From assembly GCF_964204865.1 (NCBI RefSeq), contig NC_135263.1:12214001-12278000 (forward strand): a stretch of DNA of 64,000 nucleotides. The letters are read 5' to 3'. The notes below the pieces were generated by a model. It was given only the letters and a program-made list of their open reading frames with translations, had not been told where the DNA came from and ran no database searches. The position numbers and the translations under genes were made by a program. The stretch's first letter is position 1. Each line of letters starts with the position of its first letter. Of this stretch, positions 9,001 to 52,005 are shown piece by piece. The stretch comes from Styela clava. Its lineage: Eukaryota.

Positions 9001-12000
9001 CTGCAAAACGTGCCACCAGACAATTTTATGCGCCCTCTTTTTTTCAAAAAAAGTGCATACATAAAGACAAAAATACTATATGTTCTTGTGTTTCATTATT
9101 CATCATTTTTATCAGATCACCTGCGATGGCGGGAGGTTTGTTCGCGATCGAGCGGGATTATTTCTTCGAAATCGGCCTTTATGATCCTGGTTTGGAAATC
9201 TGGGGTGGAGAAAATTTTGAACTTTCATACAAGGTAAGAATCGTCATACTGTATGAATAAATGTTTATTTGTCTCGTAATGATAAGGTTCATTGATGAGG
9301 TGAACGTATATTTTTTGATATGGGATGCATTCACAATGATTAAAATTCTTCTGCACCTAAATCTGAAACCAAATTTTTATATTACCTATGTTACGTTATA
9401 GTACGTTTTTATATTAAGTATGCAAGCCTAGGCGGGATGAGGGTTAAGAAATGCGATCAAACCGTTTACAGTTAACCCAGTGACGGGACTGTTTTTTTTT
9501 ATTTATAATAAAGTCTGAAATGAATGTCGATATTTCCGACAGAAACTAATAAGGAGTTGAGATGACATTCCCTAGAGACGATTACAGTAGACCTTGCATA
9601 CTACATTCTTTGTAATCACAATTTGGTCTCCCCGGAGTTTGGATTCGAAGTTTCCTCAGAACCCCTTTAAACCCTGTGTTGGGAACCGGAGTCGGAGTCA
9701 AAAGAATTTGTTAACCATAAGTCAGAACCGGAATTTAGTGTAGTCTTCAATCTACAATCTGGAACCCGACCACCTCGGTTGCAATTCTTTACTAACTTTG
9801 CGTTGATCACTCCGAAACCCGGAAACATAAAAGTTCTAAAATCATCTCGAATCGTTTTTTTTACAATACCAATGTAAATCCTATGTACAATAGGTTAAAA
9901 CGACATGGGATATCTTTTAGCATCAGCGGTCATATCTTATACTTGCAATTTATTTTAGATATGGATGTGTGGCGGTGAAGTACTTTTTGTACCATGTTCA
10001 AGGGTGGGCCATATATACAGATTGCCTGGTTGGAGTGGGAACCCTCCTCCAGACTATGTTCCTTCAAATCCAAGTCTGAGGGTAAGCTTGTTTTTTTTTC
10101 TGATATTAGATTAGCTTTAAAATGTAACAAAACACGTTTAATTTACTGATATTTATAGGTAAATCGTATTATCTCCAGTTCGCCTAAGATTGAGGTTTTG
10201 GTCTAAGACGAATAAGCGCCAAATGAAATGAGTTACAAATACGGATGCCACTTATAGATTTACGAATCGAATTGATTCGAACCAGATTCACGCAATTCGG
10301 AAAAAGAGAGCGATTTACCGAAGAAAAACAAACACGCTTGTTCATCGTTGTTATCGGCGGCATTAAATCTGTCGAATGCGTTTATGCGGCACTCCAAATC
10401 ACGAGACGGGACTGTGAATGAATTGTTCGTGATTGACTTTTACTGATCTGCCGTCATCCGTGTGGTGTAATTTCTTTCAAATTGCCAGTTCAGTATTCCA
10501 CTGAATGGCCCAAGTTTCTATTATACGCTTATACACAAATTTAAATAGATCGTATCCTTGAAAATTCTTTCCAATTTTGATAATTATAATCTGCAACAGC
10601 AAACCTGCGCTGCGACTAAGTTATGGTACGCCCTGGCATGATTGGATGAAGAATCACCTACCGACTTGCAGAAAATATTTAATTTTGATTGAAATTTAAT
10701 TTAAACTTCGTTCAGAGTGAAATATTTCGGGTATATTTGATTCGCGTATATAACTATTACTAAATAAGTTCATTATCCGGTCATGTTAATTGACAATAAT
10801 GTTTTTCATCCTAAATATATATTTTATCCATTTTATTAGCATTTGCTGTGCCTCCACTTGAGTGGCGGTAAATGAAATGAAGGCAAACATGTGATGGAAC
10901 ATGTAAGTGTCTTCTTCCAGCTGTTACATTTTAAAAGAAATGTAATATTTGCTAAGCACGATATAAGCGAGGAATAAAACATTTCGCTTATTCCATAACG
11001 AACATGCAGGAATAGATAATACTTGTGGAATGGCAAATTGTGCTCTGTTTCACATTAACACGCGCCAGATTTCATACCAGACCAAGCATAATATGCGAAT
11101 GTCGTCTTACTTTAGCTCCAACGATCGTGTTTGATCGAGATACAGCGTCGACCAATTATCGCTCGTCAGCTCCGCGTGTATTATGTACTTGGACTTTCTG
11201 AATTACGAAATCAAACGTAGTCCGAGATAATAATAAAGTCCCGAGTTTGGTAATAACGGTTTTAGTACTTAATATATAAGGGAATATTTTTTCGCAGTCG
11301 TAGTCAGTTGGTAGTTTATTTTAATCGAAATCAATTTAATTTAAATGAGTTAATTTTTTTGTTCTCAAGCATATTCCTTAAAGCAAATTTCATTTATTGT
11401 AAACCGGATGCAATTAAAATGGTGATCGCGTATTTATATTCAATAGAATGTGCCCAAAGCAAGGTGTTTCATACTCACTTAGGACTAGGAGTAATGGAGA
11501 CTCCTCTCGGATCAGAGTTAGTTACGACGCTTAAGCAGTACAGTTCCATATCGTGGTTTTAAATTAATATTTTCGTGCTGTTCGTCCCCCACTGTTTTAC
11601 TTTATCTGGGTATCTCTATTCGGTTATTACTATTTTTCCCATACTATTTTTCCCTAGCGTAGCCTAAGATAAGCATAATGAAAGATATCAGGAGAAAGAC
11701 AGAACATTACAGTTATTTCCTTCCTATAAATGAGTGCCTGTATTCCCCTTTGCGTAAACAAGTTGTCGCCATTTTGTTTTTTGTTCTACGTTTAGAATTA
11801 CATTCGTGTGGTGGAAACTTGGTGGGATGAATACAAGGAATATTTCTATGCAAGTCGACCAGAAACTATCAATATGCCGTATGGTGATATCTCTGAACAG
11901 GTAAATCCGCATAGAATATATCTATCTAACGGTTAGATTGTCAGCCACTCTTCAGAAATTCGTTTATTTCCATTCGAAATTTTCTTCCATGTTAGAAAAT

Positions 12001-15000
12001 AACCGTAATTTGAAAAACAGATACAAAATCATACAACATCGAAACTGCAGGAAGTAGCATGGAAAAGATGTTTCTTAACATTAGCACGCTTAGAAATGTT
12101 CAATCAGTATTCAGTATGTTATATAGTCCAGGTCCATCACTTCAAGGCTTGGAGATACTTCCATTTCCGCGAAATTTGAATTGTCTTTTTCTTCACACGA
12201 AGTATTCTCCAGCGCTACAGCTTCGTGCATGTTGTTGTACACATCACTGACAACCACGGTCCTAATTGTTTTATTGTTTCGAAAATTCCATTCTTGGTAA
12301 TCCTTGGAAACGGCCGTCGAGTGAATACATTCTGGCGAGGTATCATCGTCAACATATCCTTTCGTCATTTCAGTTCTTAACATTTATTTACACTAGTAAT
12401 AAATCAGTTACCAATGTTATTATTAAAATAGATATCTAATTACGCAAATGTGGCGTACTTGACCACCTCAAGACAAATTCAAATGCAGCTTTACCGCTTT
12501 CGGTTGAGGCTTCGAGACAAATGAAAATTCAAAGATGTTTAGAAAGCGGCGTCGCGATGGGATATAAACGTGCTTTTAAGACCATGTGATTTTTTTCGCG
12601 CGCTTACATGTTGCACGTGTAGTGTAGTTAGTCTTGTCACTACAGTCGCACTACATTATACATAGCCACTGCAAAAAACCTGTTTCCCTGAGCGCTACCG
12701 CATTACAATTCTAATAACAGATGTTACACAAAACTAGACTCCAAAACTCTTATTTATACATAATCCGCCGCACCTAGCCTGCTACCCGGAAAAGTTATTT
12801 ATTACTAAAGCAGCTAAACACCTACTGAGGTTTTTGCTTGAGTGGTAAGTTTTTTTAATTCCAATTAACTTTAAATTTAGAAATTCGAATTATTTCTAGG
12901 AAAGAAATCGGGAAATCGGAGTTTCATATGAAATAATTCTTGTAATTACATTAGTAATCAAAATATGAATAATATAAATAAAAAAATCTTCACTGCTCTA
13001 CTTACTAACTTTTAGTAGTTCGCAAGGCAATTTCATTCTGGAGAAAATTCGAAATTTAAGAATTTTAAAAAATTGTATGCGAGCAATGTTTTTTGCTCCA
13101 AAATTTATATCCTAAACTTATATACTTATATATTTACAGGCAGAGTATTACGATAACCGGCTGTTCGAATCTTCGCTTGCTATTAGAGTAGTAGCAACGC
13201 CAATAACGATTACACATTTCACAAATAGCAGCGACTTTTCTTATTTATTTACGCAATATTATGCACTCTTTCTCCAATAAGCATTTCCTGTCGTATATTG
13301 CCTAACAATATACTTTTTCATATAATAGTTTAGATGGTAGGTTTTGGAATTTCGGTGCCATTTCCTCCATGTATGCCACATGCCTTCCGTTTCCGTCGCC
13401 CAATACAGCGTTGAAATTCTCTATTGTTTCATCAGCTCTTGGTCTCTCAAACGCTTCCTATAATGTCTCCTATAATTTGAAATGTGTCGCCTTAGAAATC
13501 GAAATGCTTATTTTCTATTCTCATCCTGCATTCTGCAGTGGCAATGGTAAACTATATTATGATTACAATACAACGTTGAATTTTCATTCAATAATGACAG
13601 TATCTCATCGTTTATCCCTATATATACACATCATACTGTATAACACAAATTCTACAATATTAAGTGTTCATAATATTTATTGAATAATGACACTTTCCTT
13701 GTTCTTTTAATAATCAGGTGAAATACAGACGAGATCACAACTGTAAGAGTTTTAAATGGTTTATCGAGAACATCGCCTACGATATTCCAGAACACTATCC
13801 ATTACCAGCTAAAAACAAGGAATGGGGAGAGGTGAGACCACGTTTTGCATTTCGCACATTCGTTACCCGACCTAAATAAGCAAAGCTGCAGCTAATACTA
13901 TCGACGCTACTATTTTTATAAGGGAAGTTGGACTGCCTGTTAAATATGTCCATCCAGAAAGTAGCACTATCAAGCGATGGTCGGTATTTTTACCCTTTTG
14001 TGCCGAATTTTTCAATCGATCGCCGGCATACGTCATATTACTATCTGCTTGTTTTGAAAATAATAACGACCGTGTATATAAATGCGATGGCATATTGGTA
14101 AGAGTGTTGGTTCATAGCCGATATATTTTGGGATTATACCCATCACGTCACTCGGGGTGTAATAAAATCAGTAGACAGTACCGAAAAGGAAAGATTTTGG
14201 TCCTCCAAAGTAGTAGTTCATTACATATCAGGGCCGCGTGTACACAAGGTCCTATTTGGAGGGAACAAGTGGTAACATTGTGAATACCATCCCATTAAAC
14301 CTCATTCTCATTTCTCGTCGTTTCAGATTCGTGCGATCGGCACAAAAGAGTGTTTAGACAGTATGGGCCACAAAAACGGGGACGGTGCAGTCGAACACGG
14401 ATACTGTCATCGTATGGGCGGAAATCAACTATTTCGACTCTCGGATGCAAATCAGTTGGCGCAATATGACCAATGTGTAACCAGTAAACGTGGAATGATT
14501 ACTCTGGTGCACTGTGATACAACTGAGTATAAAGAATGGGATCACGACGAGGTTGGTTGGGACAAAACGTTTTTTATGGATTTAAAAGTTGAGAATAAAT
14601 TAAGGGTCTACTTTAAATTATTATGTTAGGAGCACCTCTCCTTTTATCCCGTTTTGGAAACAAATTTCGGCTCTGAACAAGTCGTGAACAAGTACACTCA
14701 CCGTGTTAGTTTTGTTGAGCTTGAAATAGTTTTCAGAACCCACCACGTCACGTGTTAGGCATTATTACCCATTCAACCCAAGTTTGCGCGGCACTAGATA
14801 ATTTATGTATTATGCAGTCCGTCGTTGTAAATTTACTTTACTTGAATTTACTTTCGATGATCGACTTATCTGTTTTGACCGGGCAGGGTTCCGGGCCTCG
14901 AATAATTGATGTCTCCTTGACGCAAGAAAATTTCTTCCTATACTTCAGCAAGTTTTCGCGAGTTGGTGCCTGTAATTTGGTTTACATTTTAACATTATCG

Positions 15001-20160: not shown

Positions 20161-23100
20161 ATGGAATACTTCTGGAAATCCGTTCTTTTGTGTGTCATGT
20201 CCTTAATTGTTGTCATGGAAGCATCATATTCAAACATAGGTAAATTTAGCTAATGATTTATGTAAATCTGATAAATATTTGTCGAATTTCAATGTTTAAA
20301 TCAACGCTCACAGTTATGTGGGTTGGAAGATAGACTAATAATTTCAAATATAATACTAATTTTGTGTTAAATCAATCTACCTATTTACAATTTTAGTACT
20401 GTGGTTGTAAAACATTTTCATACAAATATTTTATTCGAAAAATTGAGGCCAAGGTAATAAAAATGATTATATGTTGATATTGATAAAATTTATCTTTCTA
20501 GATTCCTGTAAAAAAATTCCTCCTGCGCGACGAATTGAATGTGGATGGCCAGGCATAAGAAGAGCATCTTGCGAAGCTAAAGGATGTTGCTATGATTCAA
20601 GATACATGAAAAGTCTTTGGTGTTTTAAAAAAGAGGAACATACGCAAGGTAAGTTTCTAGTATTTGAAGTAAATTAGTCTTTCTATGGGCGTACAGCCTA
20701 TAAAAAGGTTGCACACTAATTAAAATTATGTATATGCATCAGCGACAAATTGCGTGTTTTCTTGATTTTCATTTAGTATGGCAGCTTTAAAATTTCCCAT
20801 TCGATTTCCAGTGAACTATCGCAACCACTCACTCAAATTTTAATTTATATATTATTGTTTATAATATAATATTATAATTTAAAATATATTCCATCCTATT
20901 TCAAATGGCATATCATACAAAACATCAATATGATGCTTTGAGATGAAGTATCTGTTCGTCTGTTTATGACTCACATATTGTGACCGCATATTTTATATAT
21001 TAATTTAGGATATAAACATTGGTCACATTCGTTTTTTAATTCCTAAGAAAACTGGGTCTTGTTGTTTTTCACTGGGATAATTGATGCAAATAGAATTATC
21101 GAGAATTCTAATCAATGATATTCATTCGATATCACAACCTCAGAATAATTAATGTAACAACAAGTTGCTTTCAAAGCCTCCAGGATTTGTGGTTATCTAT
21201 AGACGTGCGTTGGTAAAATGAGAAAGAATAAAGTCAATTCTAGAGTTTGGATACCATAACACAACATGTAAATGCTGGACGTGTATCGATATGAACATTG
21301 ACGTGTTAGGGGGGGTTGATGAGAAGTATGACTCAAAAGTTGATGAGAAAAGACGACGGTTTTGTATTAGCTAAATAAAAGTTAGTCATCGATAAAAATA
21401 TGGGCGAAAACAAGTACAAAAATTTCGCAACCCGTCTTTTCTTAATTGCATCTTATAAATTTAGCTTTTGAGTCGTTAGCCATATTCAGAGGCGGTTCCC
21501 AATGATGTAATAAATCATTTATAAAAAAATTCTCTATATGCCAAAAGCGTCATCGAGTTGAAATATTCTACAAAAAATGAAATCCTGTTTATGCACTTCA
21601 ATGTTGCAATTGAGATTAATGACATTCTAACGGCACCAAGTGAATTGAGCTATATTGCCATGGCATGATAATGACTGAAACTTACTAAGTTACGTAAATT
21701 GTGCTGTGCCTAGTAATCTATTCAAACATGTTTACTGCTTGAGTATTCTTCGTTGCCGTCAGCGTTGTAATCGATTAATTGAATATTTCTCCTAATTTAG
21801 TTTATTCGCAATTAAACGTTTCTGATCGTGACGTCATAGAAAAATATACTTTCTTGGTTTCAATAACAATTTATTGAACGGAATCTTATATATTATGTTT
21901 TAATCCGAAAGAAACTTTGTTCAGAATGAATTAACATTCAGTCTTTATATGTCAAAACTACAACCGGATGTCTTCGTCTTGACGATGTTGCTATTCGTGT
22001 CAGAAACTTCGTTAAAACAGAAAACAATTTATTTCATCAATCATATCGCAGCAATGTTTTCTGTCAAACGTAAATCAAACATGATCCTCTCAAATTTGTG
22101 GCCATATTTTATGAAGAATTATGTCATTTTGTCACATTTTTGTGTTTCGATATTATGTAAAAGTAACATAGCACAACAATAACTTATGAATAAATATTTA
22201 TATATATTACTTTATTCCATACTGTGAAAAGCCCTGAACGGAAGCGAAACTTTAATTAAAATTTTATACCGAGAAATAATTTATATTGTTTTTGTTTATT
22301 AATATCAAATGTCGAAATTATTACATCATCTCAGAATAATATTATGTGTAAAATTCACAGAAAAAACTAAAACTTTTGACAACAAATTTCTATTAAACAA
22401 CAAACTGATTGCGAAGATTTGTTATTCAGTTGGTCTTGCTAATATTTTCAAGCAATATTTAGACTACTTTCTTTAATTTGTTTGTGTCGAAAGATTCTTT
22501 AATGTCCGATAGTTTGCGACCCGATCCTTAAGCGATTTTCGTTCTTCCATTTCCATGTTTAAGCCTTTTGAAAAATTTTAGGGCGCCCCAATTGGACACA
22601 AAATTCGCTTATTATTTTACTACATTTCACGTTCTAAAGTGAATTCCGGTGACCGCAAATGAATTCCTATATAAATCATTATATTCCCCATGATATTTAT
22701 TACAAAATGAAATGCCTTTACAAAAAACGGATCGCAAATTATTTATTCAGAATTAGATTAGTTAATGCATGATTTAAACTCTACCAAAAAAATTGTCACG
22801 TATCCTTATGTGAATAACTGAAAGAAACTATTTTAATTCTCGTTTTTATTGAAAGTATACTTAGTTCGATGAACAACAATATGTGTATTTACAGCTTAGC
22901 GAGCATTACTGATTACAATCTACACTCGTAAGCAAAGCCATCATTGTACAACTTTCTTACACCCGATAAAGGTCTCTTTAAATGGCATGTGGTGCGTGGT
23001 TTTCTATCTAGTAGTAGTGAATGGAGGTTCATTGGGCACGAAATGTACACATGGATCGTTTCTGCTAAACTGCTATTGTTGTTGGGATGACATTTGTTTG

Positions 23101-26100: not shown

Positions 26101-28645
26101 AAAAAATTATTGAAAGAGCAAATAATTGCTTAAATGGCATTTGCAAGTGTCGAGGAATTTGGAAATGATTTTCCAAGGAAGCCAAATAGTCGTTTTCCAT
26201 AAATATTTTCAAAAGTAGTAATAAAAGTAAGTAAATCTGTAAATAAAAAAAGTCAAAATCACAATTTATATATAACGATTTATTTATTGTTTTAACTGTA
26301 CAACTATCGCATAGTGCTTCACAATGTATTCGTTCAGAATTTCTATTTTTTTCTTGCGTTTTAAATCAACAAATACTTTCTTCTAGATTCGGACTTGACA
26401 GAGGTAGAAACCGAAGGCTCTGTGTTGAGGACTTGTGCTGTCGCATCTAGTGACCGCGTGGATTGTGGATGGCCTAGTATTAAAAAAGTAATTTGTGAGA
26501 ACAGAGGTTGCTGCTATAGTGAACAAATCAAAAATTCCTATTGGTGTTTTCAGCCAGGTATAAAAACACGATTTTTTTCTCATTTTGCTCGCAACGGCAT
26601 TGAAATTCCAGGAAGTATTAGATGGTGATTCACGGATTCAATTTAAAACAGTCGCGAGGACACAAATTGGTCTTGCGATTTCAGATAATTTTTCACAGAT
26701 TTTGTACGTTTTGAGGAATTACGCGAGACCGCTTTTCCCACCCTTCCGACAATTTGAACTTCATATTTGAATAATTAACGATCCTTGTTTTTGATGAGTC
26801 TTAATTGATTGGCGTATTTTTAGCGCTTTATTTTTCTATTGCAGCAACCTTGTTCATTCAACCTATAATGCAGTATGTAATGAAATGTGTTTCAACTTGC
26901 ACTGCATTATCCTGGAGAAGAACTGTAACTTTGGGATCAACATGCAAAACAGACTCTCGGTGTTGGCGGAAGAAGCATGGAATATTGGGATCCATCTGCA
27001 TGACATTATGCAAATCAAATTCAAGTAATGTTAAAGTTGTGAATAAGGCCTTTCATTTATAACTCTGTAATGCGTTATTATAATATAATATCAAAGAATT
27101 GACAGTAATTAATTCCGACGTTAGGTTCGAAGTATAATATATTAGAGTCCGGTGATTCTCAAATTTTTTAGGCAGCGCTCCCTTTTTAGAATTTGTTAAG
27201 TCTCGCCTCAAAAATAACTGGCTAACAATAAGATACAAATGACAGATGATGAGACGAAAGTAGTTTTTATTAAAAAAAAAACGATGAAAATACGTGGATG
27301 GAACGTAAATGTCCAACAGAGGAAGCTTAAATAAGGCGGGCAAGATCAAATCTAACAAATATTTTCATTTTCAATAAGCTTCACGTCTTCTCAAAAAATT
27401 GTCTACGCCCTCTTTGTAGACCGCCACTGTTAGAAAACCACTGTTAGACTAAATAGTATGAAAACAAGTAAAATTTGAAATTCCGATGATATTAAAGATG
27501 AAAATCGGCGGCCTTTAATGCTGGCTTGCGTTTTAAAGCGGTTAGTTAGTCATGCCATGTCTCAGTAGTTCAGTAAATTCACATAAACATTAGCATGAGG
27601 ATGGCATTTTACCTAGTAAAATAAAGGAGAAAAATTGAATAAAAAAGATTCAGAAATAAAAGTTTCTTTATAAATACAAAAAGGTTGAAATATTTAGGAC
27701 ATATTAGTAATGGAGAATTATTTTTCTCATTTTACAAATTAAAATTGTTGTTACAGCCGTCAAGGAATATATTAAAAATGTATCATCTTGCCTTGGGCTC
27801 AGTAATGCCATTCGACGAAAAACTTCACGAAAATGTGAAGTTGATATCTCCTGTTGGACGAAAATGCATGGAAAAGAAGTTGGGAGATGTTTTGCTAAAT
27901 ATTCAACTTCGGTTGGAGGGAGGGAGTCTATTATTGAAGGTATACATACATGTATTTGTGGGATGAATTGTAACCTTTTTATAGTTGTGCGATAACGCCT
28001 ACACAGCCATAAAATTGCACAATAAAGCATGTTCTTTTTGAACAATTTTCTCGGGCATCGTGCACTAACCTTTCGAAAAGATATTATCAGATATATAATA
28101 TGCCAATTTGTATGTAAAAAAAACTTTAATGGGAAGTTATAGTCCTACCACTCATACGTGACAAACTGAACGTATCTTAGATCAATAATGAATAAAAAAA
28201 TAAGTGACGTTGTTGGGACAATTATGTATGTATAATGTCACCATGTCGATGGTACTTTTTGAGGTTATTCGCTTTCAAATCTTAATCTTTCCTTTCATTG
28301 AGGTTATTGTCATTTCCTAATCTCTAATCTAGCAACAACGAAAAAAACGATTTGTGTATTTGTCACCATGTGCTTTGTATATAAGTTCTTTTTTACTCAA
28401 CGCAAAATGTTGAACTATAATTATCTTTTCTAGATCTCGGACAAGTTGCAAGACAACCCGAAATTCAAATGCCTTTGCTATCACTGAAACCAGCAGTCGA
28501 AAAAAACGTGTCTAGTAACAAAGACTGGTTAATACATCGAGATCCGAATCAACAAAATTCTAGTTTTGAGGTTCAAGTGTCAGTAATATCAATAACAGAC
28601 TTGACAGAAGACGAAGACACCGAACCTTGGTGGAATAGGGCGTAA
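20161..28645 (+). CDS. Secreted trefoil (P-type) domain protein, about 323 aa: signal peptide, 2 trefoil domains, 2 novel 4-Cys repeats, C-terminal tail
   Basis: Exons 20161-20239 (MEYFWKSVLLCVMSLIVVMEASYS, signal peptide), 20502-20648 (CKKIPPARRIECGWPGIRRASCEAKGCCYD...WCF), 26387-26557 (CAVASSDRVDCGWPSIKKVICENRGCCY...WCF), 26845-27024, 27757-27939, 28434-28645 (TAA). All introns phase 1; total 972 nt, open throughout. Donor of exon 4 (A|GTAATG) is the least certain. Confidence 0.8.
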
Positions 28646-30329
28646 ATATTACGAAGCAGAAAGTGGCGTTAGCGACCCTAAATGAATACAGCTGGTGTAA
28701 CTTGTATACATTATCGTTAAATGCATATCTTATGTGCAGCTACATTTCAATGCCGACGTGGAACTTCCAACACTAAGAATATCTCCGTAGTGTGTGTATT
28801 AGGTTAGGGTTAGGCCATAATTTTATTCCGATTTTACTTATTTTAGTTCTATTACAAGTTCGGAGACTGTCTATGTCAGCCAAGTGAATAATACACCTTC
28901 TGTTCACAGGCTCCAGTCCCTTACACAACTTGTAGTAGGCGAACAAAATTAGTCACCTCCATATTGGTTCACACACTTCCGGGGTGCCACACTAGGTTAC
29001 GATGACGTTCACCTATACATCGCATGCAAATTGCTATATATATGTGGAGTGTATTTTTGATGTCGTTCAAGCTCCGTATCTGTTAATATTCTGTTTGTAA
29101 TACTGTGACATACTTGTTGTTTTATAAAGTATTATATTAATAAGACAAAGACAATTAAAAAAGTCTGCGAAGCAAAGCTGAAATATATGAACACGCAGGC
29201 CGCGCACCAGATAAGCATCGAGTTTATGGAAAGATTCGGAGACAGGCATGACGGAACAATATGCTTCAAGATGTTATGTATAAAAGTGTTCTCTTAAAAT
29301 AGAATTAAACAGCAAAATTTTGAGTGAATTAACAGCTCCAACAAGATTAAAGTATGATTTTTTTCAAGCAACTGAAAACAAAATATAAAAAAGTGATATG
29401 CCAACAACGGTGTCAAATATCCTTATGTACTCAAAGCGATCGACCCATTATTAGTAAAGAAGAGCACTTCCGAAATCTTATCAAAAATTGTCCGTGTAAA
29501 TACTTATCGGGCGGGATACAAAATCGTTTGGGCCGTTCATATCAAGGCTATGGAGTAGGAGAAAATTTACAATCAACTTCGAGTTGGAAAAAATTTTGAC
29601 TTTGACTAAATTTATAAATATTATAGACTACCGACTCCAAGAAAATAACAGTTCAATAACAAAAAAAATTACATATGCGAGGCTTCGTCAATGGACTATT
29701 AAGATCTCCTCACAAACTTACCTTTAACGATTTCTGAATTCCGAATCAGATTTTGAAAACACGGCCCCGGATCCAAAGCCCTGCATCATAAGCGTTTACA
29801 AACCTCCGAAATTCATATGTGGTTTCAAATATTCTAGGGTCTGTCACAAAGGAATCAATAACACACGATTAACCTTATACACTGGCTTTGTCATGTTCCC
29901 CACACACAACAACCAACTAACGCTGCTAACATGACAGTACTCAAACCCAATAAAAAAATCAACAAAAATAAATATTCCATCCATCATCTTATATTCGGTC
30001 AAAACAAAGCATTATTCTTCCGTTTCTTGCCCAAGGAAATCCGACAAACAAACCACAGAGTTACCTCCGATTAGGCTATGGTTAACACAAGCATTATAGA
30101 TGATAATATCACAGCATACATGCCGTCAAAAAAATTTCACCCAAAACCTCTACCAGTTTCCACATTGGTTTTAACCAGCAATCCTACAAGAACATTATCT
30201 TGTAATGTGCAGAAAAATATCAACAGTTTTAACTTTTATCCGACTTTTAGCAAAATATCAGTGCTTCAATAAACATAAATTGCAACTAAGCTCCTATCAG
30301 AAATTATTTGCACAATTTTTTGAGTTTTG

Positions 30330-33300
30330 TCATGAGCTGTCATCTTCGCTAGATGACTCTTCTTCTGCCTCTTGTAGCCAATCAATAAATTTGGTAACCT
30401 GAAAAAATTGAATTCAAAAAGTATTGCTGTTACCTAGGACTTCCACTATTACAATTCCTAACGATAAAGTGCCAATGTTTTTTCAAACACCGGGACTCAA
30501 GTTGAATGATGAGAGCTTGATAACCTGGTGAGTTTAAGGAGCGAAATATAACAATATCAGAATACTTACTGATTTTCGTAATTGGTTGGGAGTTACGTCA
30601 GAAACTTCTGAAGTTTGCACTGTAGAAGGATTTTTATGCCATGATAAAATTACTTCTTCTGCTAAGATGTCATTCTCATATAATAACATCAAAATCTAGA
30701 ATAGGAACACAGTAATACTTATAAACATAGTAATATTTCTAAATCACAGCTGAAGACTTTAATTTTAGCCTTCATAATATTTAATATAAATTAGTCATCG
30801 AATATCCAACTTAGGAATTTTTTTTATCTTATTAGCATTAGTCAGAAATAATAAAGTTAAATTTACCACATCTACCAGTCTGTGTCGGGCACACAGGATC
30901 AGTTAGCTAGTTATTATTTATTTCAGATGCATGAACTTGATGGTGAAGGAAGTTGTAACCGATTAGTGATTACGTGAACACCCTGCAGCGGTGTGGAGTC
31001 CAGCAATCCTCTCGGCTCTCATACATAATTATCACCCACAGGATTCAAACCCACACAGGGTAATCAGACGTGCGATCGCAAGTGTATTCCTAACGTTTAG
31101 CACGGTGCATCAACAATTTTATGATTAGTAGTAACGATATGTAAAAAATGAACAAAGCTTAAGAATATACCTTGATAAGACAATCATAAGCATGTTTGTT
31201 GCATAAGCAATATTGTTCAATTTCATTAATACATTCCATCTGTGACTGACTTGTTTTATTATAATTCATGAAAACTGGAGACATATATAACAGAACCTGA
31301 AAAGAGGAATTATTTAGTCAAATCAAGTGTTTTGATGGTGTTACTGCTTGAAATTTTCACCCAATTCCCTAGCACGGCTTGCATCCTTGCCTAGATGTTG
31401 TTCATGTCCAAAAAATAGTACATGTAAGAAAAGTTTAGCACATCATAATTCTATTTGCGATAATTTTACTGTATTGCATGCTGAAAAAATTAGTACCTTT
31501 TTCAAAGCTGGAAAGAATGGTGCACCATTGCATCTCAAATAAGAAATCTCAAATGTGGCTTTAGTAACATTTCGAATAACGTCCTGTATCGTGACATTGT
31601 AAGCATATTTTGATGAGTTAATTTCCAAAATTAAATTATCGCACTTGATACTTTCTTCTATTCCTCGTGATAAACTGTCTTTGACTTCTTTGAAAAATAC
31701 TAAAAAGATAGAGCATACAAGAATCAACGTTCATGATAGAAACATGGAAAAGCAAGCGAGGTGAACCACTAGCTTAGGTTTATGTTACCAAAACAAAACC
31801 TATATTAAAAGTGGCTGATGCAAAAATTTATGTATACAGCTAATATGTTTGTACTTTAAGAGAATTTGGTCAAAGAAGCTCATGCATTCAAAATCAAAGG
31901 AGACTCATCTTTGAGCAAAGTTACGAGAGACCATTGAAATGCTATCGAAACTATATAGATTGAAATTTGATAGGTGCATTGATTTTTAAATACATTGATA
32001 AATTTTTGAGAAACAATTGACATTGGTAATACATTCAATGAACAAAACCGCCATAATGGATTGATGCCATCTTATACACTTCTTGTAAGCCCAAACTCAC
32101 GGATTCATCATTAAATATCCTTGTCTAGCCCCCTGACACACCTACGCCTATCACTAATATAAAAAAAAATTTAGTTAAACTGACCCCTGTATGATTCTAT
32201 TACCTGCTGGAATGAAAACTTACATGTTATTGAATTTTCTTCATTCTCATAATCCTCCATGTCACTTCCATCTGTTGAAATATCATCATCTTCTGATGAT
32301 TCCGCGTCACTATATGTTGGGAACATTTTATCTCTCTCAGTGAGAGACATTCCTAAATAAGAAAGAATATTGATTCCAATCTGTGATAATGGTAATCATT
32401 AACCCTTTCCGTGTGGAACGACAAAAGTCGCTAGATTGCAGCGGGTACGTTGATGTACTCCACTGTTTTATTTAGCAATCGGTCGCAAACTGCTGGTCTA
32501 GTTTTTCCGGGTTTTAGTTTATTGATAAGAAGTCTTCTTCGAGATTAACATAAGCGACGGTAAATCTCGCTTTCGTTTACGACGGGAATTTTATTTGCGG
32601 CAGAACGAGGGAGTGTTTTTGAAATTTATGCAATGTTTTTTGGGTGGTAATAGAAGACATATTATCCCTTCTATCTACCAAAGTATTTTGAGTTAGATCA
32701 CGAAATTGCTACAGCAATATTATGCTATTGTTTGCCAACCACCAAGCGGTAACAGTAAAGGATTTAGCGAATATTTCTATTTTTTATCACGGTTTGGAGT
32801 TTCAACTCCCAAGAAAATGAAATGCCTTTTTTCTATCCGGTTGGTGACTCAGACCCCCACTTTCAGAAAAACTTTTTTTTTAATCGCCAATTGCAAGCCC
32901 TTTAAATAAGCTTTCCAACGAGCCGTCAGTGGGCAGCAGAGGATCATTAGTTTTTCGTTAGTCGATCGATAAGTTGTGGGGGTACAAATGCATAAAATCG
33001 GCGTAGCAAATACGATTATTTAATAAAAAATAAAAATCGCATGGAAAGGGTTAAACAGTTTATTAATCTTTCAACAGTATGGCTTATCGTGTTCAAGCAT
33101 TAGTAAACCATGTATGAGCTCAAAGGTTGTGGGGTATAAATGTGTGTGAGAAGATTGCTGACTCCTTGCCACCATAGGGTAGTTCACTTAACCAGCTACC
33201 TCCACCATCAAGTCCATGCATCTAAAAATGAATAACTGGCTAACCAATCCCATACCCATAGATTACCCAGTTTTTACATTACTGCTTCCTTATAATGATC

Positions 33301-36300
33301 AAGGCTCGGTTTAATGAATAATTAGGAAATAAAAATTTAACAATGTGAACTGGTAATGCACATGAAACATCCTAAATTGGAATATACTTTCAATTATTAT
33401 GCAATTCGAATACGCATATATTCCTATGACCGACTATTATTGTTTTTTAGGTTTAACCAAAACCTATAAAAAAAAATAGTTAAATCACCCCAGATTCCTT
33501 CACGATTCAATTCCATTCCAACATCTTCATCTTCCATATCACTATCTATATCCTCAACTCTACTCCATAATATTCCTCGACCTCTTTCACCAACCAAAGA
33601 TGGATTAATATCCTTCAAAAAACAAGAGAGTAATCTTCAAAAATATGGGAATAAAGGGTATATGATTAAAATGTCCACTGCAATGACAGCAAATATCCAG
33701 CCTGATCTTAAAATAATTGTATCAAATGTCATATGTAGGTGTGTCTGCGAATTATAAAATCCAGCAAAAGTTGAGGTAACATATTGGGCCCAGTATGACC
33801 AGAAATTTGAGTAAAAGTCAATACGATCCAGAAAACAGTTATGAAATAATAGTTTCTTGGAAAACTTTTTGCATAACTTTTTTTCTAGATAAATCTCAAA
33901 TTCTACCTTCTTTTGCATATTTTCTCCTTCTGCAAAAGTTTCATCATCAATTTCAATATGAATCACAGTGTCTTCCTTCAACGTTATATTCGGACCAATT
34001 TCAACCTACAAATGAATTAAATAATAAAGTGAGGCAGATCAAAAATTAAAACCAAGTCTTAAGCTATATCAAAGAAAAAGGTAAACCTATCTTTTGCAGA
34101 TAAAACCTATCTTTTTCATATATGGCTTCTATGGGGCCAAACCAACTGGTGATTATGAACAAATGTTTATTCTATTCTAGTTCTAATGTGTTTACTACAA
34201 GAAAATTGATTCATAAAACCCACTTTTGATCAGTAAAAATTACGAAAAATAATTTACCTTTGTTGCTAATACACATCCAGAAGGTATTTTAGTATTTTCA
34301 TGAATGATTGAATTATTTGACAGAATGCTTTTGTCTATTGTACATTTGTCTTTCACCGTAACACCAGACCAAAGATAGGAATCTGTAAGGGATAGTAAAG
34401 AAAAATAGCCATATGAAGCATGAAAAAGAGGCAGAAGAATCGAAACTGAATTTAAATTGTTATTCCTCATGGTTCTCGCAATGGCTGTTGCTACAGGAAA
34501 CCTCTTTATTAACTATCAGACAAACCATAGCCAACGGTCGCATGCCATTTGACCCACCATTTGAAGCATTTTATGCGACTGCATGCTATTGGAGAAATTT
34601 TTTTAAAGATGGAATGAGAAAAAGTAACAATAATATTGTCTTCCAGCAAATTTTAAATCATAAATGCTAACAACAACAAGTACATCATACCTTTAATAGA
34701 AACATCATCACCAATAACACAACCATTTCCAATCACAGAGTTTCTTATTCGGCAGTTATTTCCTATAATAGTATCATGTCCGATCACACAATTATCCTCA
34801 ATTGAGCTATCTTTCCCCAAAGATTTGATGCTTCCAATATATACATTTCGTCGCAGATGGTGATACAGTTTTGGAGAGGAGGCCAAAGTGATATCTACAA
34901 AATAAAATGATTGGGGCATTTGTCAGCTCCATGGGGATGGAAAACTTAAATTACAGGGTAAAAAATGGCAATGAGTTGTATGCTAAAGTATGTATTCAAA
35001 GAGTTTTCTAGATACCAATTTTTAATTTGAATGAATTTTTAAGAAAATTTTCCCTAAAGATTAGCAATGCAAATTGCCAGTCTTTAAGTATAGCACTGTT
35101 AAACTGAGTTGCCCAATTAATAGTCATTCCTGGAGGAAATCCTGAATTTATGATGACACAATTTCACACAATCATAATCAAATAATTTACTACTGCAAAT
35201 CCCTATCTAAAATTCATCTCAATTTTCAATATTCTAATTAATATATTTATTGCATTTATTTATTTCTATTTATCTATTTTACATCTAATTTATTGCGAAA
35301 TTGGCAAACTTAAGAAAAATTTTTCTTAAGTCCCTGCATCTGAAACAAATAACTGACTAACTAATCCCCTACCGGACATGGACTGGTAACCAGACAAGAG
35401 ACCGTGGTTCGCCTTTGAATATCAGCTTATCTTATCAGCTTTCTTCTCCCCCCCCGGGATTAATATATAAATCCTATTAATATAACTAATCATCTGAAAT
35501 CTAAATTCCATTGAGCTATATTTCCGTTGACGTCTCTGCAAACACGGTTCCATTTTATTCAATTTCCACTGAAAATATACCTTTCTTGTTTTTTCCAGAA
35601 ACTGAATTTTCTCCAGATTCGAAATCGTTATCAGGAACATAAGGGTAAATCCATCTTGAAGTAACTGCCTTGCTTATCGTATCATACATGTGAAGGGTAG
35701 ATATTCTCGCTGCAAAATCTCTTTTAATTGTGTGAATGTGGATTTGATTTCCTAAAAACTGAAAATTTAGTAAGACATTATATACAGGGTGCGATAAAAA
35801 ACCTTCCAGATTTCAAGTCAGGTCATTGCTATGCTGCAGTTATCCACCTAGTTTTAACCCTTTCCGTGCGGTAGGCACGTATACGTACCAACGACAAAAC
35901 TCGCTAGATTGCGGCGGGTACGTTGATGTACTCCACTGTTTTATTTAGCAATCGGTCGCAAACTGTTGGTCTACTTTTTCCGGGTTTTAGTTTATTGATA
36001 AGAAGTCTTCTTCGAGATTAACATAAGCGACGGTAAATCTCACTTTCGTTTACGACGAGAATTTTATTTGCGGCGGAACGAGGGAGTGTTTTTGAAATTT
36101 ATGCAAATTTCGGTGTTTTTTGGTTGGTAATAGAAGACATATTATCCCTTCCATCTACCAAAGTATTTTGAGTTATATCACGAAATTGCTACAGCAATAT
36201 TATGCTATTGTTTGCCAACCACGAAGCGGTAACAGTAAAGGATTAGGCGAATATTTCTATTTTTTATCACGGTTTGAAGTTTCAACTCCCAAGAAAAAAA

Positions 36301-39300
36301 AATACCTTTTTTCTATCCGGTTTGTGACTCAGACCACCACTTTTAAAAAAACTTTTTTTAATTGCCAATTGCAAGCTCTTCAAATAAGCTTACCAACGAG
36401 CCGTCAGTGGGCAGCAGAGGATCATTAGTTTTTCGTCAGTCGATCGATTAGTTGTGGGGGTACAAATGCATAAAATCGGCGTAGCAAATACGATTATTTA
36501 ATAAAAAATAAAAATCGAATGGAAAGGGTTAAGTACTGTAAATTTTAGTTGTTAAATTATTGCCATTTTGTCTCCAATTTTCTAATGATTACAGATTAGA
36601 CATTTTTGGTAGTGATGTGATTATACCGCAATGATATTTGAGCTACTAAAAATGCTGAAAACTAAATCTAGACTGAAATGAATGAACAGTTGGAACAATG
36701 AAGAAGAAAAAAATTTGATGCATACCTCTTCATTTATCAAAATTCCTTTAATGAAATCTTCTTTAGTTTGGTAATCAAAATTATCTGTAAATAATTGAGG
36801 AACTTGGGGGGAACAGACAGCAACACCTTCATCTGATAAATCATACCGAAATTCAAAATTGGAACAAGTATTCTGCAGTAGGGTTTTCTGTAAAGTGTAA
36901 ATATAATATTTCAAATTTTATAAACTTCCAGCAATCACAATTCACAAAGCATTTCGATCAATTCGCTCGCCCTTTGTAAAGATCTTGATTCTTGAGCATT
37001 GCTATATTATTATTATTCTTGTCATTTAGATCTAATGTATCTTATTTTGTATATTTATATCGAATTTATTTTTTTATATCGTATAAACAAATTGGACATT
37101 TAAATCAACCATCAGTTTTCCACCATAACAGAATTAAATAGAAATACGAAACAGAATTGGAAGCTTTTCAAAATATTTTTAACTGTGTTCACTCACAGTA
37201 AGGCAAATTGGTAACCAGAACAAAAGATTGGATGTGCTTTAATAACGAGGATATTTGATAATAATAATAATGGAGATTCAACAAATGGCACAAGAATAAA
37301 ACTGTGTCTATTCATTAAAATTATTCGGAATGCTAAACGTATGTGGCCTTACCAATGGGAACTCAAATTTAGGTTTCCTTGTTAAACCGATTTTTTGATA
37401 ATAAAGAACTTGTTGAGTATGAGAATCGAGAGCAACAACGATGTCATCATCTGCTGATCTCATCTCATGAGTGGGAGGACAACTACGCAAAATTAGTGTC
37501 ATCAACGGCTTATTTTTATCTTTCGTCCTTCTATCCCTGAAAGCAAAATATAAACAGTGAAAAGGGTTATATTTGCCTGTTGAAAGATAGGATTTTCATA
37601 TTTATTCTAGAGAAGAAAGGCGATAAGATATATATATATATATATGGCGAACCACAGCCTTTCATCCGGTTCCCAGTGCATGCTGTGTATTTTGTGCTAT
37701 TTTTTTTTATAGATGACTTTATGGTGGAGAAATTTGTAACAGGTTTCGGTTACTTGAACCTCCCTATGAAAGCAAGGAGACCAGAATTCCTCTTGCACAT
37801 TTATTGAATTAAATACAAGTTACTCATTATTAGGAAGACTGAGAAGACACTGCTGTTATTATCTCAATTGCCAAACAATAATGAGGCAATATTAATATTA
37901 ATTTGTACACACTATTCTAAGCTAAGTCAATTATACAGCAGTATTGAACAAATGAAGTTTATTCAAAAATATGTGTTTAATCTTTCATCATTTCATCAGC
38001 TTTTAAACAATTGTCTGTGACTACGTACACAATTAGCATAGCCTACTTTATTGACGAGATATTTCGCAAATACCAACCGATGTTCTGTTAAAGCTTGCTG
38101 AAGAGACATATTCGATATCAGATCTCCTGCTACAAGAAGAAAATCTGTTTCAAACAACGATTTTTGATCGATGTCTCTCAATACATCACCCAATGATGTA
38201 AAATCTGATGACACAATAGGAGTGACTCGGCATTGAGAGGATCTGGAATAAAATTTGTCAATGATTAGTAATTTCGAACAAAAATTCCACAATTTTGCTC
38301 TAAACAAGGCGTTAGAGAACCATCCACTAATGTGCAGGAAGCTACTAACTTGAAAATTAAATTTATTGGAAAAAGGTATTCTAAAGACATATTTGTCATA
38401 CTTGGTAGATAATTTCTTAACTATGTCAAAGATTTTTGATAAGCCATATTTGGATATAAATATATAAATGCAATCTAATGGTAAAAAATAAATATATTGA
38501 ATTATTTGAAAAAGGTATTGTTTATTTCATTACCGGTATATAGTTTATTTAAAATATGCAAGCTTCTTATAATTCAAAAGAAACGCCATGCTTCAGCTCA
38601 ATTGTAAGACAACATATGTTTGAATAAAAAATAGATCAAACAATAAACAAAGAATAAAATACAAATATGCACCGCTGGTGTTTAGGAAAATTTCAAGAAA
38701 AAATTCCTCCCTCTGGAAGTTTCAGATGGAAAATTTTCTTCGTGAAATATGTAGACAAAATTAAAATCTTATCTAAAGCTCCAGTGTGCGATCTTTTTTC
38801 AATAGATTCTTTGTATTGTGTTATATTTTTTAGACTTGTTCAAAATTTTCTGGGTTAAAGTTTTGTGGATGGAACTCTCCTAGTAGTAATGCTCATATAT
38901 TTTATTCCATATTTTTTCATTTGATCTATTGTACGAATTTGGTGAAACTGTAATGAATTGGCATATTCAATAAATAATATTGATAAGCTATCATGTGATT
39001 TGAATACTGATACTGCAATGGCATTGTATAATAATAGACATTTGATCATCACACATAATGGAGATGAATTCTTTGCTTTTCTTACTTGGCTCCCCATTTG
39101 CTGTTTGCAATATAATCCTTTATCAGACCAGAGCAATGACAGCAGTAAACATAGATCTGTTGAACTCCATTTGATGACAGAAAATCTAGCGTGTAATCCA
39201 ACAATGGTTTGTTTGCTAAGGGGAACAATGCCTAAAATAGAAAAGGATAATTTAGGGGCCTAAATGTTTAAACACTTGTGAGAAATGATTATGCTCATCC

Positions 39301-40486: not shown

Positions 40487-43400
40487 ATGTGTGATGTCAT
40501 AATGCACAATAGACAAACTTATTCCCAAGAAACGCAAATAATTACTAGGTTAACAGAAATGATGGAAGAGAGAAACGTCGAAGAAAATCCGCGGGAGTTC
40601 GGAGACGTTATTTCAAAAATAAAGGTTGGTCATGCATTTCACCAACATAAGATATTTAATGCTACGGAGAATGATCATCTCGATAGAAATCTAAGCAAGT
40701 TATAAGCTGAGTTATGCAATTATTTAATTTTCAAATATTTTTGAGTTTTTCACCTAGGCCATAATCTACCCTTTTCAGAAAGTTCACGGAATTCTTGATC
40801 GCGTGGGGTTGAATTTGACGAATATCAAAAGCAAAGTACGTCACCATCAAAGAAGTCAATCTTGTGGAGTCGGTAAACTTGAAAATCACACGGATAAAGA
40901 GAAAGACAGGTAAGGAGGCGAATAAATCAAAATCATCATCCAGTCAGGCTTTATGAAATAGCGACTGCTGACGAAAACGTACTAACGCAAACTTTGAAAG
41001 TATCAGGCTGTAAACATAACACTATCTGTTTAAGTAATTAGAGCAAATGAACCTGAATTGTTAGCAGGAACTATGAGTAGAAAATTTTGTATATATACAA
41101 GGGTCTATGGCGGAAGAAATGACAGCACTTTCTCTTTGTACATCAAAAATACATATATTACTCGACACTGTAATATAAAAAAATTGCAATGGTTATTTAA
41201 CCTTTAACTGTCGAAAACAAAATTTAAATTGTGAAATCAAAAGTATGATCAAAATTTCTCTCCTCATTATTTAATTGAAGTTTTATGTAAGTGTTGATCC
41301 AAATTTACCATATCGTTGTTTTAAATCTTATTGTTGATAATATATTGGTAACTAATTATTTCTTTTTAGGCACACGCCTTCATCAAGGTATGTCAGTCAC
41401 ATACCTGTGCCGTATGGGAGACTTCGTCTCAGAAACAAAGTCGCGACGTTATCTATGGCTGATCGAGATCAGGTTTGTGAATCGGAACACATTGCACCAA
41501 ATTTAATAAGCACATCCAAACTTGGGGGAACATTAAATTTGTAGCTTGCCAATAACAGAGAAAAACAAAATTTTCATCGTTATTTCGACAACAACTCATG
41601 TTGTCGAACTGGTTTCAATGTTACGACCAGCTGGAATTCATAAATTTAATTATAAATTCTGTATGCTATCGAAATTAGAAATCCGTTACTAGTTTACCTT
41701 GCACAATTTTTACTAACTATGGCGTAAAAATATCAGGATGGTAAGGAGAATATGCTCCGATTTTAGGGATCCTAGAGAATATGAAATGGATATAACATGC
41801 TTAGCCAAGCCAGAGGAATTGCTGAGAAATATTTAACGTTCATGCATATCGAGAAAACGTTTATAAAACAAGAGCCGTGTTATAGTAGTTTGGCACTTCT
41901 TACTACGGTTAGAACTAAAGTATTGAACCTGTTCATGGTTAACTGAAATGCCAAGAAGTTTTCTGGCAACTAAATGTTATGAAATAAAAGTCCTAAAATT
42001 CGGATGAATCAAAACTTTTGGGACATCAATACTCAATCCGGATGTTTGAATGACTCGCCGGGTACATTGCTGTGCAACAGGATTCATTAGAATCATGAAC
42101 ATCTGTCAATAATGTGAGCTAAAATCCGATATATTAGACACTATCCACAAATATTTCTTTTAGAATCACGGAGGGGCATCCGGAGAAGGTGACGTTACAG
42201 TCGAAAAACATCTCAGAAATGATAGAAGAAGGGAGTCCCCATCACCGAATAGAGGAAAACAATCTGATGCGGGTATCAACTCTGAACCGGATTTACCAAC
42301 ACCCAGAACAGAAGAGCGCAGGTTGGCAATAGTAATATGTATATATCTATACACGGTGAATAATATGTTAAAACAGAGCATCACCCGATTAATTAAAGCA
42401 ATATATATAAATCAAAACGTGTCGTATATAGTTTTAATACTTGGGTTCTATAGAACTTGGTCAATTTACTATTTCACAGAAGGCGATGTGGCTCGTTACC
42501 GGTTCCAGTAGCTCGAGCAAGAAGTGTACATAACCAACGCTACCTCAGCCAAGCAGCGGAAAACAAATTATCTTCAACAAGTTCAAATAAACGGCCAACG
42601 TATCGCAAACGTGATCGAAGATACAGCAGGGTGGTTGCCAGAAAAGTTTTGAATGAAGAAAGCGATTCTTCATGCACTACATCGGACATATTGCATGACA
42701 CATTTACTACTGATGCACGCTGTTCTGAGAATAGCATAAATAAACAAGATACCAATTCTGATGACTCAAGTACCCCAACAAATTCTCCGCGGTATTCAGT
42801 GTTGCAAAAACAAACTGATGCGGATTTAAAAGTTGACGTAGCTTTGCATACTCGTTCTCGAAGCATTCCAACAAAAATAGACGGAAGAATTGAAAGACGT
42901 CTAGAAAATTATTTGAATAAAGGTCTAAAATCTGAAGTAAACATGCAACAGACTCACAGCCAACGACCGATACTAGTTGCCCGAAGAAGTCGAATACCAA
43001 GAAAAAGTCATTCAACGTTGCGAAAAGATGTACATGGAAAAGATTCAAAAACAGACGACAATCCAAAGACATCATCTCCAGCGCCTAAACTCAAACAGTC
43101 GCTCATTGATCACAAGAGAACTTTACCACACAACAAAATCAAACGAGAAAATGTCCCAAAACCCATTCGAGGTGGGAGGCGGCGTGTCCGAGATTTGCTT
43201 GAGGACCAGTGCTCTAGCGCTGAAATTGATAACAACACTACACCACACAATGACCCGCGGCCACCGGAAGATTCGTTGGTTGACACGCACGATGATGGAG
43301 AATCCCAAACTGTAGTAAACTTTTCGGACATCGACACTGGTTCGATGGTTGACACGCAATATGATGGAGTATCGGAAGCTGCAGTTAATTCTTCCGACAT

Positions 43401-47650: not shown

Positions 47651-48341
47651 ACAACAAGAGATTAAAAATCTTTCAATTTTGTTCCAAATCAAAGGCACAC
47701 TTGTAAAGTCAAAAATATTATCTTTAGTATGCCTTTTAGATTAACAAGTCGGATATTGTCTCATATCATCACAGGGGAATCACCTACCACAAAAAGACGA
47801 ACATTTGGTCCGGCGAGCGTCTTTAATGAGTCATTGTGAATGATAATTGATAACCCTAGAGTCAGCGGGGTGTAGTTAAATAATTGGTAATATATTCCAT
47901 ATATATTCCAACATTACAAAAATAGATTTAAATATTATTGTGTTTTTACTTTCAATTACTAGATATAAGATATGAATTCAGAGAAATTCTGTTATATTTG
48001 AAGGTAGTACCCCCAGGCCCCAATCACCACATAGTTATCAAACAAGTAACAGCAGCAATCATTTATAGACTCAACATTAGAAAAGGAAAAAAATCACCTA
48101 ATCTCGTGAGAGAATTTGAAATACTAAAGAATTGTCTTTGAATTGTGAATCAAGTAGAGAGAGAGAGAGAGTTTATTTGTTTTGTCCACCAGAAAACATA
48201 CACAACAAAAAAAATATGAATTTAGTTTTAATATGTATAAAAATGTCTAATATATTTAAAAAAAAAAAAAATTGGTATTTTATTTTATCATAGAAAAAGA
48301 GAATCAACTACAAATAAATCCTTACCACGAAGTTTTGTTGT

Positions 48342-48661: not shown

Positions 48662-49190
48662 GCCATACATACAGTTCATACATACATGAAATATACAGTT
48701 CTGTAGTTATATAACGGTCGACCACGGTCTGACGGTGCTTCAAGTTCAATCGTTTTGTTTCATGGCGAAGTTAAAGTCAATGATTTTATGTAATTTCTTT
48801 CCAATACAGCAATATGATTTACTAAGGGACAGGTCAAAATTAGAATCTACAACTACTATTTACTTTAATCTTGTTTGAAATAATAAAAAAAAAACGATTA
48901 TATTATTAATAAATTAAATATTGAGGTTGAAATTCAATTTTGACACAAGAGAGTTTGTTTCGTTTAGCAAAAAAGACAGTCAACCATACTGAAAAACTTA
49001 TAAGAGCTATAGCAATATGGGTGACTGGGTAAAGCTGTTTTTACCACTAAAACTCTTATAGCTGTATAGAGTTTTTTTCATCATCATTGAATAAAAGCAC
49101 CGTGTATGCAGTAATCTTACAGTCATAATAAGAATGTGCATTGTACTCCTAAACTTGTAATTTTTTCATCGCAGAGTATTTGGTTGTAAC

Positions 49191-51627: not shown

Positions 51628-52005
51628 TGACACGCCATGGACAGTGTGATGCGATCGCTTCAGCTATGGTGGTGAGTGCTACCGATGTTGAGAAAAATTT
51701 TATCAATCCTGATACAGTGCAATAAATTTTGAATAGTTGTGCTTGTATCAATAAATGTACGTTAGGTTTTTACAAGTCGTAGTAGCCTCCTACTGTCTGT
51801 CTGATATCTGTTGAAATATGTGCTCTGGCTGGTACAGTGCGCTGAACACACTTTAATAATAATTGCTGGTCAGGATTGCATAATTAGTGCAAGTACTCTT
51901 TCGCTCACTACATTCAAAATTACAAATGTACATATAACCTGTTTAAGATGGTGCTGACATGAAACTTTATCCAGGAGCCCCGACTTAATTGAGTTTGGAT
52001 TAGAG

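Follow-up and report, generated by a model that had tools for sequence, protein, structure and literature searches.

Two exons of a Styela clava trefoil gene encode an apparently unnamed six-cysteine module, shared with spiralians, that may form repeated binding units of a mucus or body-surface protein

The window analysed here, a stretch of 64,000 nucleotides of the Styela clava genome (C18:12214001-12278000), holds on its forward strand a trefoil gene that we modelled with six exons and canonical splice sites. The encoded protein of 323 aa is identical to the NCBI protein P0001 (labelled uncharacterized, Styela clava). The features of the gene are as follows.

20161..20239, + strand: exon 1, coding part, with the start codon and a hydrophobic N-terminus, a putative signal peptide judged by eye.
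20502..20648, + strand: exon 2, spliced, trefoil domain 1 (Pfam PF00088, E 2.4e-14), with Glu before Cys2 and Trp before Cys6.
26387..26557, + strand: exon 3, spliced, trefoil domain 2 (PF00088, E 4.5e-13), with Asp101 before Cys2 and Trp128 before Cys6.
26845..27024, + strand: exon 4, spliced, copy R1 of the module with all six Cys (C147, C151, C166, C172, C184, C188).
27757..27939, + strand: exon 5, spliced, copy R2 with four Cys (C204, C219, C225, C237), Asn200 and Tyr241 replacing the outer Cys pair.
28434..28645, + strand: exon 6, coding part, spliced, a poorly conserved acidic tail without Cys, ending in the stop codon.

Exons 1-2-3-4-5 are joined at GT..AG borders in contigs from three of four runs (X1-X3, from two studies) that were taken as RNA by presumption, none being recorded as RNA; the introns are absent from the contigs, which begin at about 20136 with exon 1 joined to exon 2. 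Contigs of X1 and X2 extend into exon 6, and those of X10 are pieces only. A previous interpretation made from the DNA letters (hereafter, the sequence-only reading) had described exons 4 (180 nt) and 5 (183 nt) as symmetric phase-1 exons, and both are indeed bounded by AG and GT and of phase 1-1, as are all of exons 2-5. Their inclusion in the mRNA, proposed there as a check, was supported by the presumed-RNA contigs, in which both are spliced in the three runs. A second allele differs at 27926-27939, at the end of exon 5, where three residues are added after the module and all Cys are intact (326-aa P0004, runs X1 and X10). Six of the seven allelic differences in exons 4-5 are synonymous versus two of six in the tail, a pattern that, with these small numbers, is consistent with constraint on exons 4-5. 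When compared with P0002, the tail is identical at 13 of 65 aligned positions and R1 at 24 of 60.

Besides the trefoil gene, the window contains, at 8907-14626 (+ strand), exons that encode both a ricin-B lectin domain (E 2e-11) and a glycosyltransferase motif (PF02709, E 2e-4); judged by these domains, the gene is likely a polypeptide GalNAc-transferase, the starter of mucin O-glycans. The trefoil gene follows about 5.5 kb downstream on the same strand, an adjacency that may be due to chance. Exons on the reverse strand at 30269-38526, which we take to resemble the translation factor eIF2B epsilon, converge on the 3' end of the trefoil gene; the one exon scanned had no Pfam match. Further downstream are a 641-codon open frame (42454-44379, + strand), which is acidic, low in complexity and duplicated over an internal stretch and has no match in Pfam, and three compact genes (49161-53564) for a glyoxalase-fold protein, presumably methylmalonyl-CoA epimerase-like, a dihydrouridine synthase and a ribosomal L1-domain protein. 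The reverse strand carries a LINE-like reverse transcriptase frame at 61145-63136 (RVT_1, E 2e-32) and, at 46857-47672, a similar but shorter fragment. Short high-copy repeats at about 27200-27420 (intron 4) and at 28785-28980 (3' UTR) lie under hundreds of unrelated RNA contigs, with a summed depth of up to 42,000 on the 3' UTR element. Elsewhere in the genome, a near-identical 29-base match occurs 25 times on one contig arm (C2:0.3-5.8 Mb), suggesting a locally amplified repeat.

The sequence-only reading regarded exons 4 and 5 as paralogous, and they align without gaps at 14 identities. Their Smith-Waterman score of 64 was reached by none of 5000 free shuffles and by one of 5000 shuffles with the cysteines fixed, and BLASTP alone gave no alignment between the two. 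The description of the unit as a four-Cys repeat holds for exon 5 but not for exon 4, which has six Cys; the string read from exon 4 began just past the first Cys and ended just short of the last. That the repeat is unrecognised agrees with our Pfam scan, in which neither exon matched a family at cut-off. The best match of exon 4 was the EB module (PF01683, E 0.022, 15.3 bits versus a cut-off of 24.3), which the scan did not detect in 14 family proteins. The C-x2-D-x2-C motif is a feature of the GDNF-receptor/GAS1 domain (PF02351), but this domain has ten Cys versus six in the module, and it matched neither the exons nor the family proteins. No third copy was found in the Styela genome by per-exon protein searches, two DNA patterns (267 and 31 matches) and HMM rescoring, in which 20 candidates were fetched and, of the 267 pattern matches, 100 were listed and about half of these examined; weak genome matches to the module did not carry the cysteine pattern.

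When 1.84 billion proteins were searched with a profile of the two exons, 15 reached E<=0.001, and 12 of these carry the cysteine pattern, so that the profile search suggested in the sequence-only reading recovered relatives in tunicates and in a nemertean, an annelid and a brachiopod. The remaining three hits (P0013, P0015, P0016) are unrelated repetitive ORFs without the pattern and were rejected. A word-indexed homologue search with the module alone returned P0001 as the sole match, while the whole protein retrieved one mussel trefoil protein and P0002 (37% identical over 91%), which retains the six Cys of R1 and the four Cys of R2. Across 50 aligned segments (48 distinct), the module spans approximately 50 residues and follows C-x3-C-x14/16-C-x2-[DN]-x2-C[WY]-x4-G-x5-C-x3-C. 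All six Cys occur in 35 of the 48 distinct copies, spaced 3-14-5-11-3 (25 copies) or 3-16-5-11-3 (10 copies).

Family members fall into two arrangements. The tunicate-type group comprises the proteins of Styela, Clavelina and Ciona intestinalis and P0002 at full length, together with a C. savignyi fragment and the partial P0019. Its layout, read from the four full-length proteins, is signal, trefoil, trefoil, six-Cys copy, four-Cys copy and acidic tail, and a short linker joins R1 to R2 in all tunicate orthologues. The Ciona intestinalis protein XP_002128880 (LOC100178289, 'integumentary mucin A.1-like') and Clavelina LOC143469179 have this orthologous layout with both module copies; their automatic labels most likely reflect the trefoils, the module carries no annotation, and our literature search found no paper naming any of the three identifiers. 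The second arrangement consists of trefoil-free arrays, with nine copies in Lineus longissimus, seven in Owenia fusiformis, three in Lingula anatina, and five, nine and six in three further records; the proteins of Lineus and Owenia and P0010 are almost entirely module. In P0007, P0009 and P0010, several array copies are identical or near-identical within one protein, implying a recent tandem expansion.

The two arrangements were linked by profile comparison, in which the ten tunicate copies matched 36 array copies with a probability of 97.6% (E 2.7e-12, 48 columns). An HMM built from the arrays only scored exon 5 at 27.7 bits and exon 4 at 24.7 bits, with exons 2 and 3 below zero, although these back-scores are not fully independent, since the arrays were retrieved with a profile of exons 4 and 5. 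When the Owenia protein was searched against the 377-Mb Styela genome, exon 5 was the only match, and a weak one (E 2.5). Taken as sequence comparisons, these results show exons 4 and 5 to be members of a family with fixed cysteine spacing that extends from tunicates to a nemertean, an annelid and a brachiopod. Considering that tunicates and spiralians both have the module, it is probably older than their split. In a tree with few columns, long branches and unsettled bootstrap, a single branch sets apart the R1 copies (four rows, support 83/76), and another the R2 copies (six rows, 75/88). Styela R1 is up to 31% identical to array copies and 27% to R2, thus as near to the former as to the latter, which suggests that the R1/R2 pair is old. 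Nothing was confirmed when viral and metagenomic sequences were scanned with P0010 and P0008, and the ESM Atlas gave no usable match in a feature search with the module or P0008 and a TM of <=0.30 in a structure search with a poor model.

No per-copy fit to the family was found in Pfam or NCBIfam, the NCBIfam matches being repeat-summed artefacts only. DUF5766 (PF19070), a candidate name for which we found no paper, matched one of 14 family proteins (P0010) with 42.7 bits summed over repeats and covering 23 of 77 positions, and unrelated families score likewise on these repeats. A literature search of titles and abstracts, with most subscription papers and supplements outside its scope, found no description of the module. 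It is a real, spliced and apparently unnamed domain family of a familiar kind, i.e., a small disulfide-rich extracellular module. Neither Pfam nor the PDB sequence set nor three fold searches of the PDB gives it a name, and it is present in tunicates and at least three spiralian phyla. Until it can be tied to a ligand or a phenotype, the family is of limited importance; being small and confidently modelled, it should be easy to express and solve.

The sequence-only reading had further proposed that the repeat is a trefoil that lost disulfide 2-4, and had named an independent new module as the fallback. Exons 2 and 3 are true trefoils of the human TFF1-3 type (PF00088), with six Cys in about 42 residues and scores of 53.4 and 49.3 bits versus a cut-off of 21; two trefoils in one chain, as in this protein, are also found in TFF2. 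In exons 4-5, on the other hand, PF00088 gave no Pfam match at E<=10. A trefoil HMM scored 46 module copies at <=4.9 bits, profile-profile probabilities were 0.1-0.2% (0.2% for the ten tunicate copies against 27 trefoils from the Styela genome, which make up the trefoil profile), and the arrays-only HMM scored trefoils at <=4.4 bits (26 of 27 reported). The spacing had been said to equal that of a trefoil, but among 18 local trefoils only the 5-residue gap fits (18/18): the module's next gap is 11, where 16 of 18 trefoils have 10, and its first gap is 14, where all 18 have 19-23. Adjacent CC or WC occurs in no tunicate module copy, and exons 4-5 thus differ from trefoils in having neither two neighbouring Cys nor a Trp ahead of the final Cys, besides their other spacing, noise-level scores and predicted all-helical fold.

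What speaks for trefoil descent is the common gene and exon phase, the stretch C-x5-C-aromatic that can be aligned with trefoil Cys3/Cys5, the 4.4 bits of exon 5 on the trefoil HMM, and the match of the profile of alignment A4 to human TFF1/TFF3 structures (E 6e-4 to 9e-3). However, most extracellular modules have phase 1-1 exons, so that a shared phase says nothing on ancestry. The score of exon 5 was reached by 16 of 250 Cys-fixed shuffles, and three other copies lie inside the shuffle range (45-189 of 250). The A4 matches arose because this alignment holds full-length proteins with real trefoil rows, and the trefoil-free alignment A6 gave no hits to structures at E<=10. Given also the six Cys of exon 4 and the trefoil-free arrays in other phyla, it is very improbable that exons 4 and 5 are degenerate trefoils. 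The fallback, supported by a family of its own that occurs apart from trefoils in three or more named genera of spiralians, is preferred, and we are nearly certain that the module is independent of the trefoil family. Domain shuffling instead of trefoil decay thus corrects a tempting story.

The AlphaFold model of exon 4, the only one based on an alignment (17 rows), has four helices and a pLDDT of 90.8. Five models ranged from 86.9 to 90.8, with helices at 6-19, 23-33, 37-44 and 46-58, and the two C-x3-C pairs sit on the first and last predicted helix. The alignment-free full-length model was useless (pLDDT 36.6), and the R1-R2 complex predicted without alignment scored 0.00. Foldseek with the exon 4 model found no match at E<=0.001 among PDB and viral models, and an exhaustive fold search over 48,161 chains found none at Z>=5 and neither trefoil nor saposin among the best 50; the best match (Z 4.9) was to UBA-like and other generic bundles, at background level for helical bundles. 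These searches fall short of proof that the fold is new. The comparison with trefoil structures that had been suggested as a check accordingly went against the trefoil proposal, since the model has four helices rather than three loops. With high confidence in the four-helix prediction, we consider the module a predicted disulfide-stapled four-helix bundle separate from the trefoils.

The disulfides of this bundle can be proposed from the way in which cysteines are lost. Both outer Cys are missing in 7 of 48 copies: the six R2 copies of tunicates, counted as a single event, and one of the Lingula copies. In two copies scored as lacking Cys1 alone, the Cys was found one place later, and the remaining incomplete copies are cut at a protein end, one of them, the C-terminal copy in P0012, being without Cys2 and Cys6 instead. 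The joint loss of the outer Cys, in two independent events, implies a 1-6 bond, and the position of the C-x3-C pairs one turn apart on the first and last helix favours 2-5, leaving 3-4 to bridge the turn that connects helix 2 with helix 3. A nested pairing 1-6, 2-5, 3-4 is thus likely. Trefoil disulfides pair 1-5, 2-4 and 3-6; with nested pairing, exon 5 would keep C204-C237 and C219-C225, unlike a crossed trefoil remnant. The claim that exactly one disulfide was lost consequently stands for exon 5, which is without one Cys pair, but the pair is the outer one of the module (first and last Cys) and not trefoil 2-4. That a copy predicted to have three disulfides stands next to one predicted to have two, in Styela, Clavelina and Ciona alike, represents a natural experiment.

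Several known helical folds resemble the predicted bundle. Saposin-like proteins are helical bundles of about 80 residues with six nested Cys, encoded in tandem precursors with linkers, and the module shares with them the predicted helical bundle, the six Cys, the nested pairing that we propose and the tandem arrays with linkers. It differs in length (about 50 residues) and spacing; no saposin Pfam match was found in 14 family proteins or either exon, and saposin B, which fell outside the rows with Z>=2 when realigned, appeared in Foldseek as a non-significant row (E 9.4, TM 0.26). Small Tim proteins and alpha-hairpinins are twin CX3C helical hairpins. These and the nemertean B-IV hairpin (PMC6410017) likewise have two helices stapled by Cys one turn apart, but the module is predicted to have two more helices and a third disulfide between its C-x3-C pairs, and no sequence or fold match to them was obtained. 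The first three helices superpose on the UBA-like 1oai (Z 4.9, rmsd 2.6 over 46) and 6q00 (Z 4.5, rmsd 1.8 over 41), bundles that are intracellular, without disulfides and 2-13% identical, with Z within the helical-bundle background.

The surface of the module varies among copies. The W-x-K-x-HG motif had been called a conserved surface, but in the 48 distinct copies His is present in 4, Lys in 29, Gly in 43 and Trp/Tyr in 45; the His position is hydrophobic in 87% of the family, and the Trp/Tyr and Gly look structural. Likewise, the module had been described as basic, yet the net charges of +8 and +7 in the Styela copies contrast with -6 to +5 across eight orthologous copies. With His rare and charge ranging from -6 to +8 in tunicates, neither W-x-K-x-HG nor basicity is a family trait. 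Conservation falls mainly on Cys, Gly and the hydrophobic core, and no invariant polar surface residue marking a binding site was found among the aligned family copies.

Our main reading, to which we assign a probability of roughly 55%, is that exons 4 and 5 are copies of an unnamed module serving as probable repeated binding units of a secreted protein of mucus or the body surface. We hypothesize that phase-1 exon shuffling brought the module into a trefoil gene at a time before Styela, Clavelina and Ciona diverged. The protein would be secreted, trefoil 2 would bind mucin O-glycans, the helical modules would supply a second, repeated contact, and the protein would cross-link, or load cargo onto, a layer of mucus or tunic. 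One study (PMC7221086) describes human trefoil factors as divalent lectins by which mucins are cross-linked, the sugar being contacted through Asp/Asn and Trp. These residues precede Cys2 and Cys6 (TFF1 numbering), and the putative pair is Asp and Trp in exon 3 and Glu and Trp in exon 2; in trefoil 2, three of four orthologues have Asp and Trp, and Ciona has Glu and Trp. Because the TFF lectin residues are kept in trefoil 2, we read the protein as a likely secreted component of mucus or tunic with a trefoil that would bind O-glycans, and it is reasonably probable that it is secreted with trefoil 2 acting as a lectin.

A comparable tunicate protein is Ciona Epi-1, which has a signal peptide and trefoil domains and is needed for the surface properties of the tunic, i.e., for its being non-sticky, as stated in the accessible text of the report (10.1101/2024.09.30.615758). 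The same text places Epi-1 inside epidermal cells, so that secretion is not guaranteed in our case. Epi-1 is set apart by its description rather than by sequence: its gene has at least 12 exons versus six here, and the module is unmentioned in that text. As to the module itself, proteins that are almost wholly module argue for it being a functional unit, and the arrays of 7-9 copies with hydrophobic N-termini agree with multivalent use. That it is a multivalent matrix-binding unit and not a released effector seems to us slightly short of an even chance.

The main rival, which we regard as unlikely, takes the module as a membrane-active or antimicrobial effector, the arrays being polyprotein precursors whose cationic modules stay masked by acidic linkers until they are cut free; the trefoils of the tunicate protein would serve as the effector's anchor in mucus. 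Prosaposin-type proteins are such polyprotein precursors, and the nested pairing proposed for the module is the saposin pattern. In favour of an effector, a positive net charge is frequent among the copies (+7/+8 in Styela, up to +11 in Lineus, +9 in Owenia and +5 to +15 in P0010), and linkers are acidic in 8 of 8 cases in Lineus and 5 of 6 in Owenia. Nemertean secretions also hold lysine-rich, helical, three-disulfide cytolysins (PMC6410017), to which the module may be likened. However, those described there have about 95 residues, twice the module length, dibasic sites occur in 0 of 8 linkers in Lineus and 1 of 6 in Owenia, and the charge is not kept in the orthologues; the saposin B row in Foldseek, given above, also weighs against this rival.

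The module might instead be a protease-resistant spacer or oligomerisation unit positioning the trefoils and the acidic tail, which would suit the missing conserved polar patch and the short R1-R2 linker of all tunicate orthologues; this is improbable, since in the Lineus, Owenia and P0010 proteins there is nothing to space. Other small disulfide-rich helical bundles of aquatic organisms act as signals or pheromones, and a signalling ligand or pheromone-like unit freed from repeated precursors would accord with the small, stable, helical, tandemly repeated module, with its variable surface and fixed core, but the constant fusion to two trefoils across tunicates, the few cleavage sites and the absence of pheromone structures from the best 50 fold matches make it improbable as well.

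A broader possibility is advanced only speculatively: an extracellular four-helix disulfide domain, so far undescribed and without a solved relative, predating the protostome-deuterostome split, may act in marine invertebrates as a lectin-partnered mucus effector that forms arrays in worms, is tethered to O-glycans by the trefoil fusion in tunicates, and binds or kills microbes.

Beyond this gene, the Styela genome contains 77 trefoil-domain matches, a large expansion over many contigs with many tandem clusters (e.g., C4:11.61-11.76 Mb, C18:13.45 Mb, C10:11.62 Mb), and 14 of 27 aligned Styela trefoils retain Asp/Asn and Trp at the sugar-contact positions.
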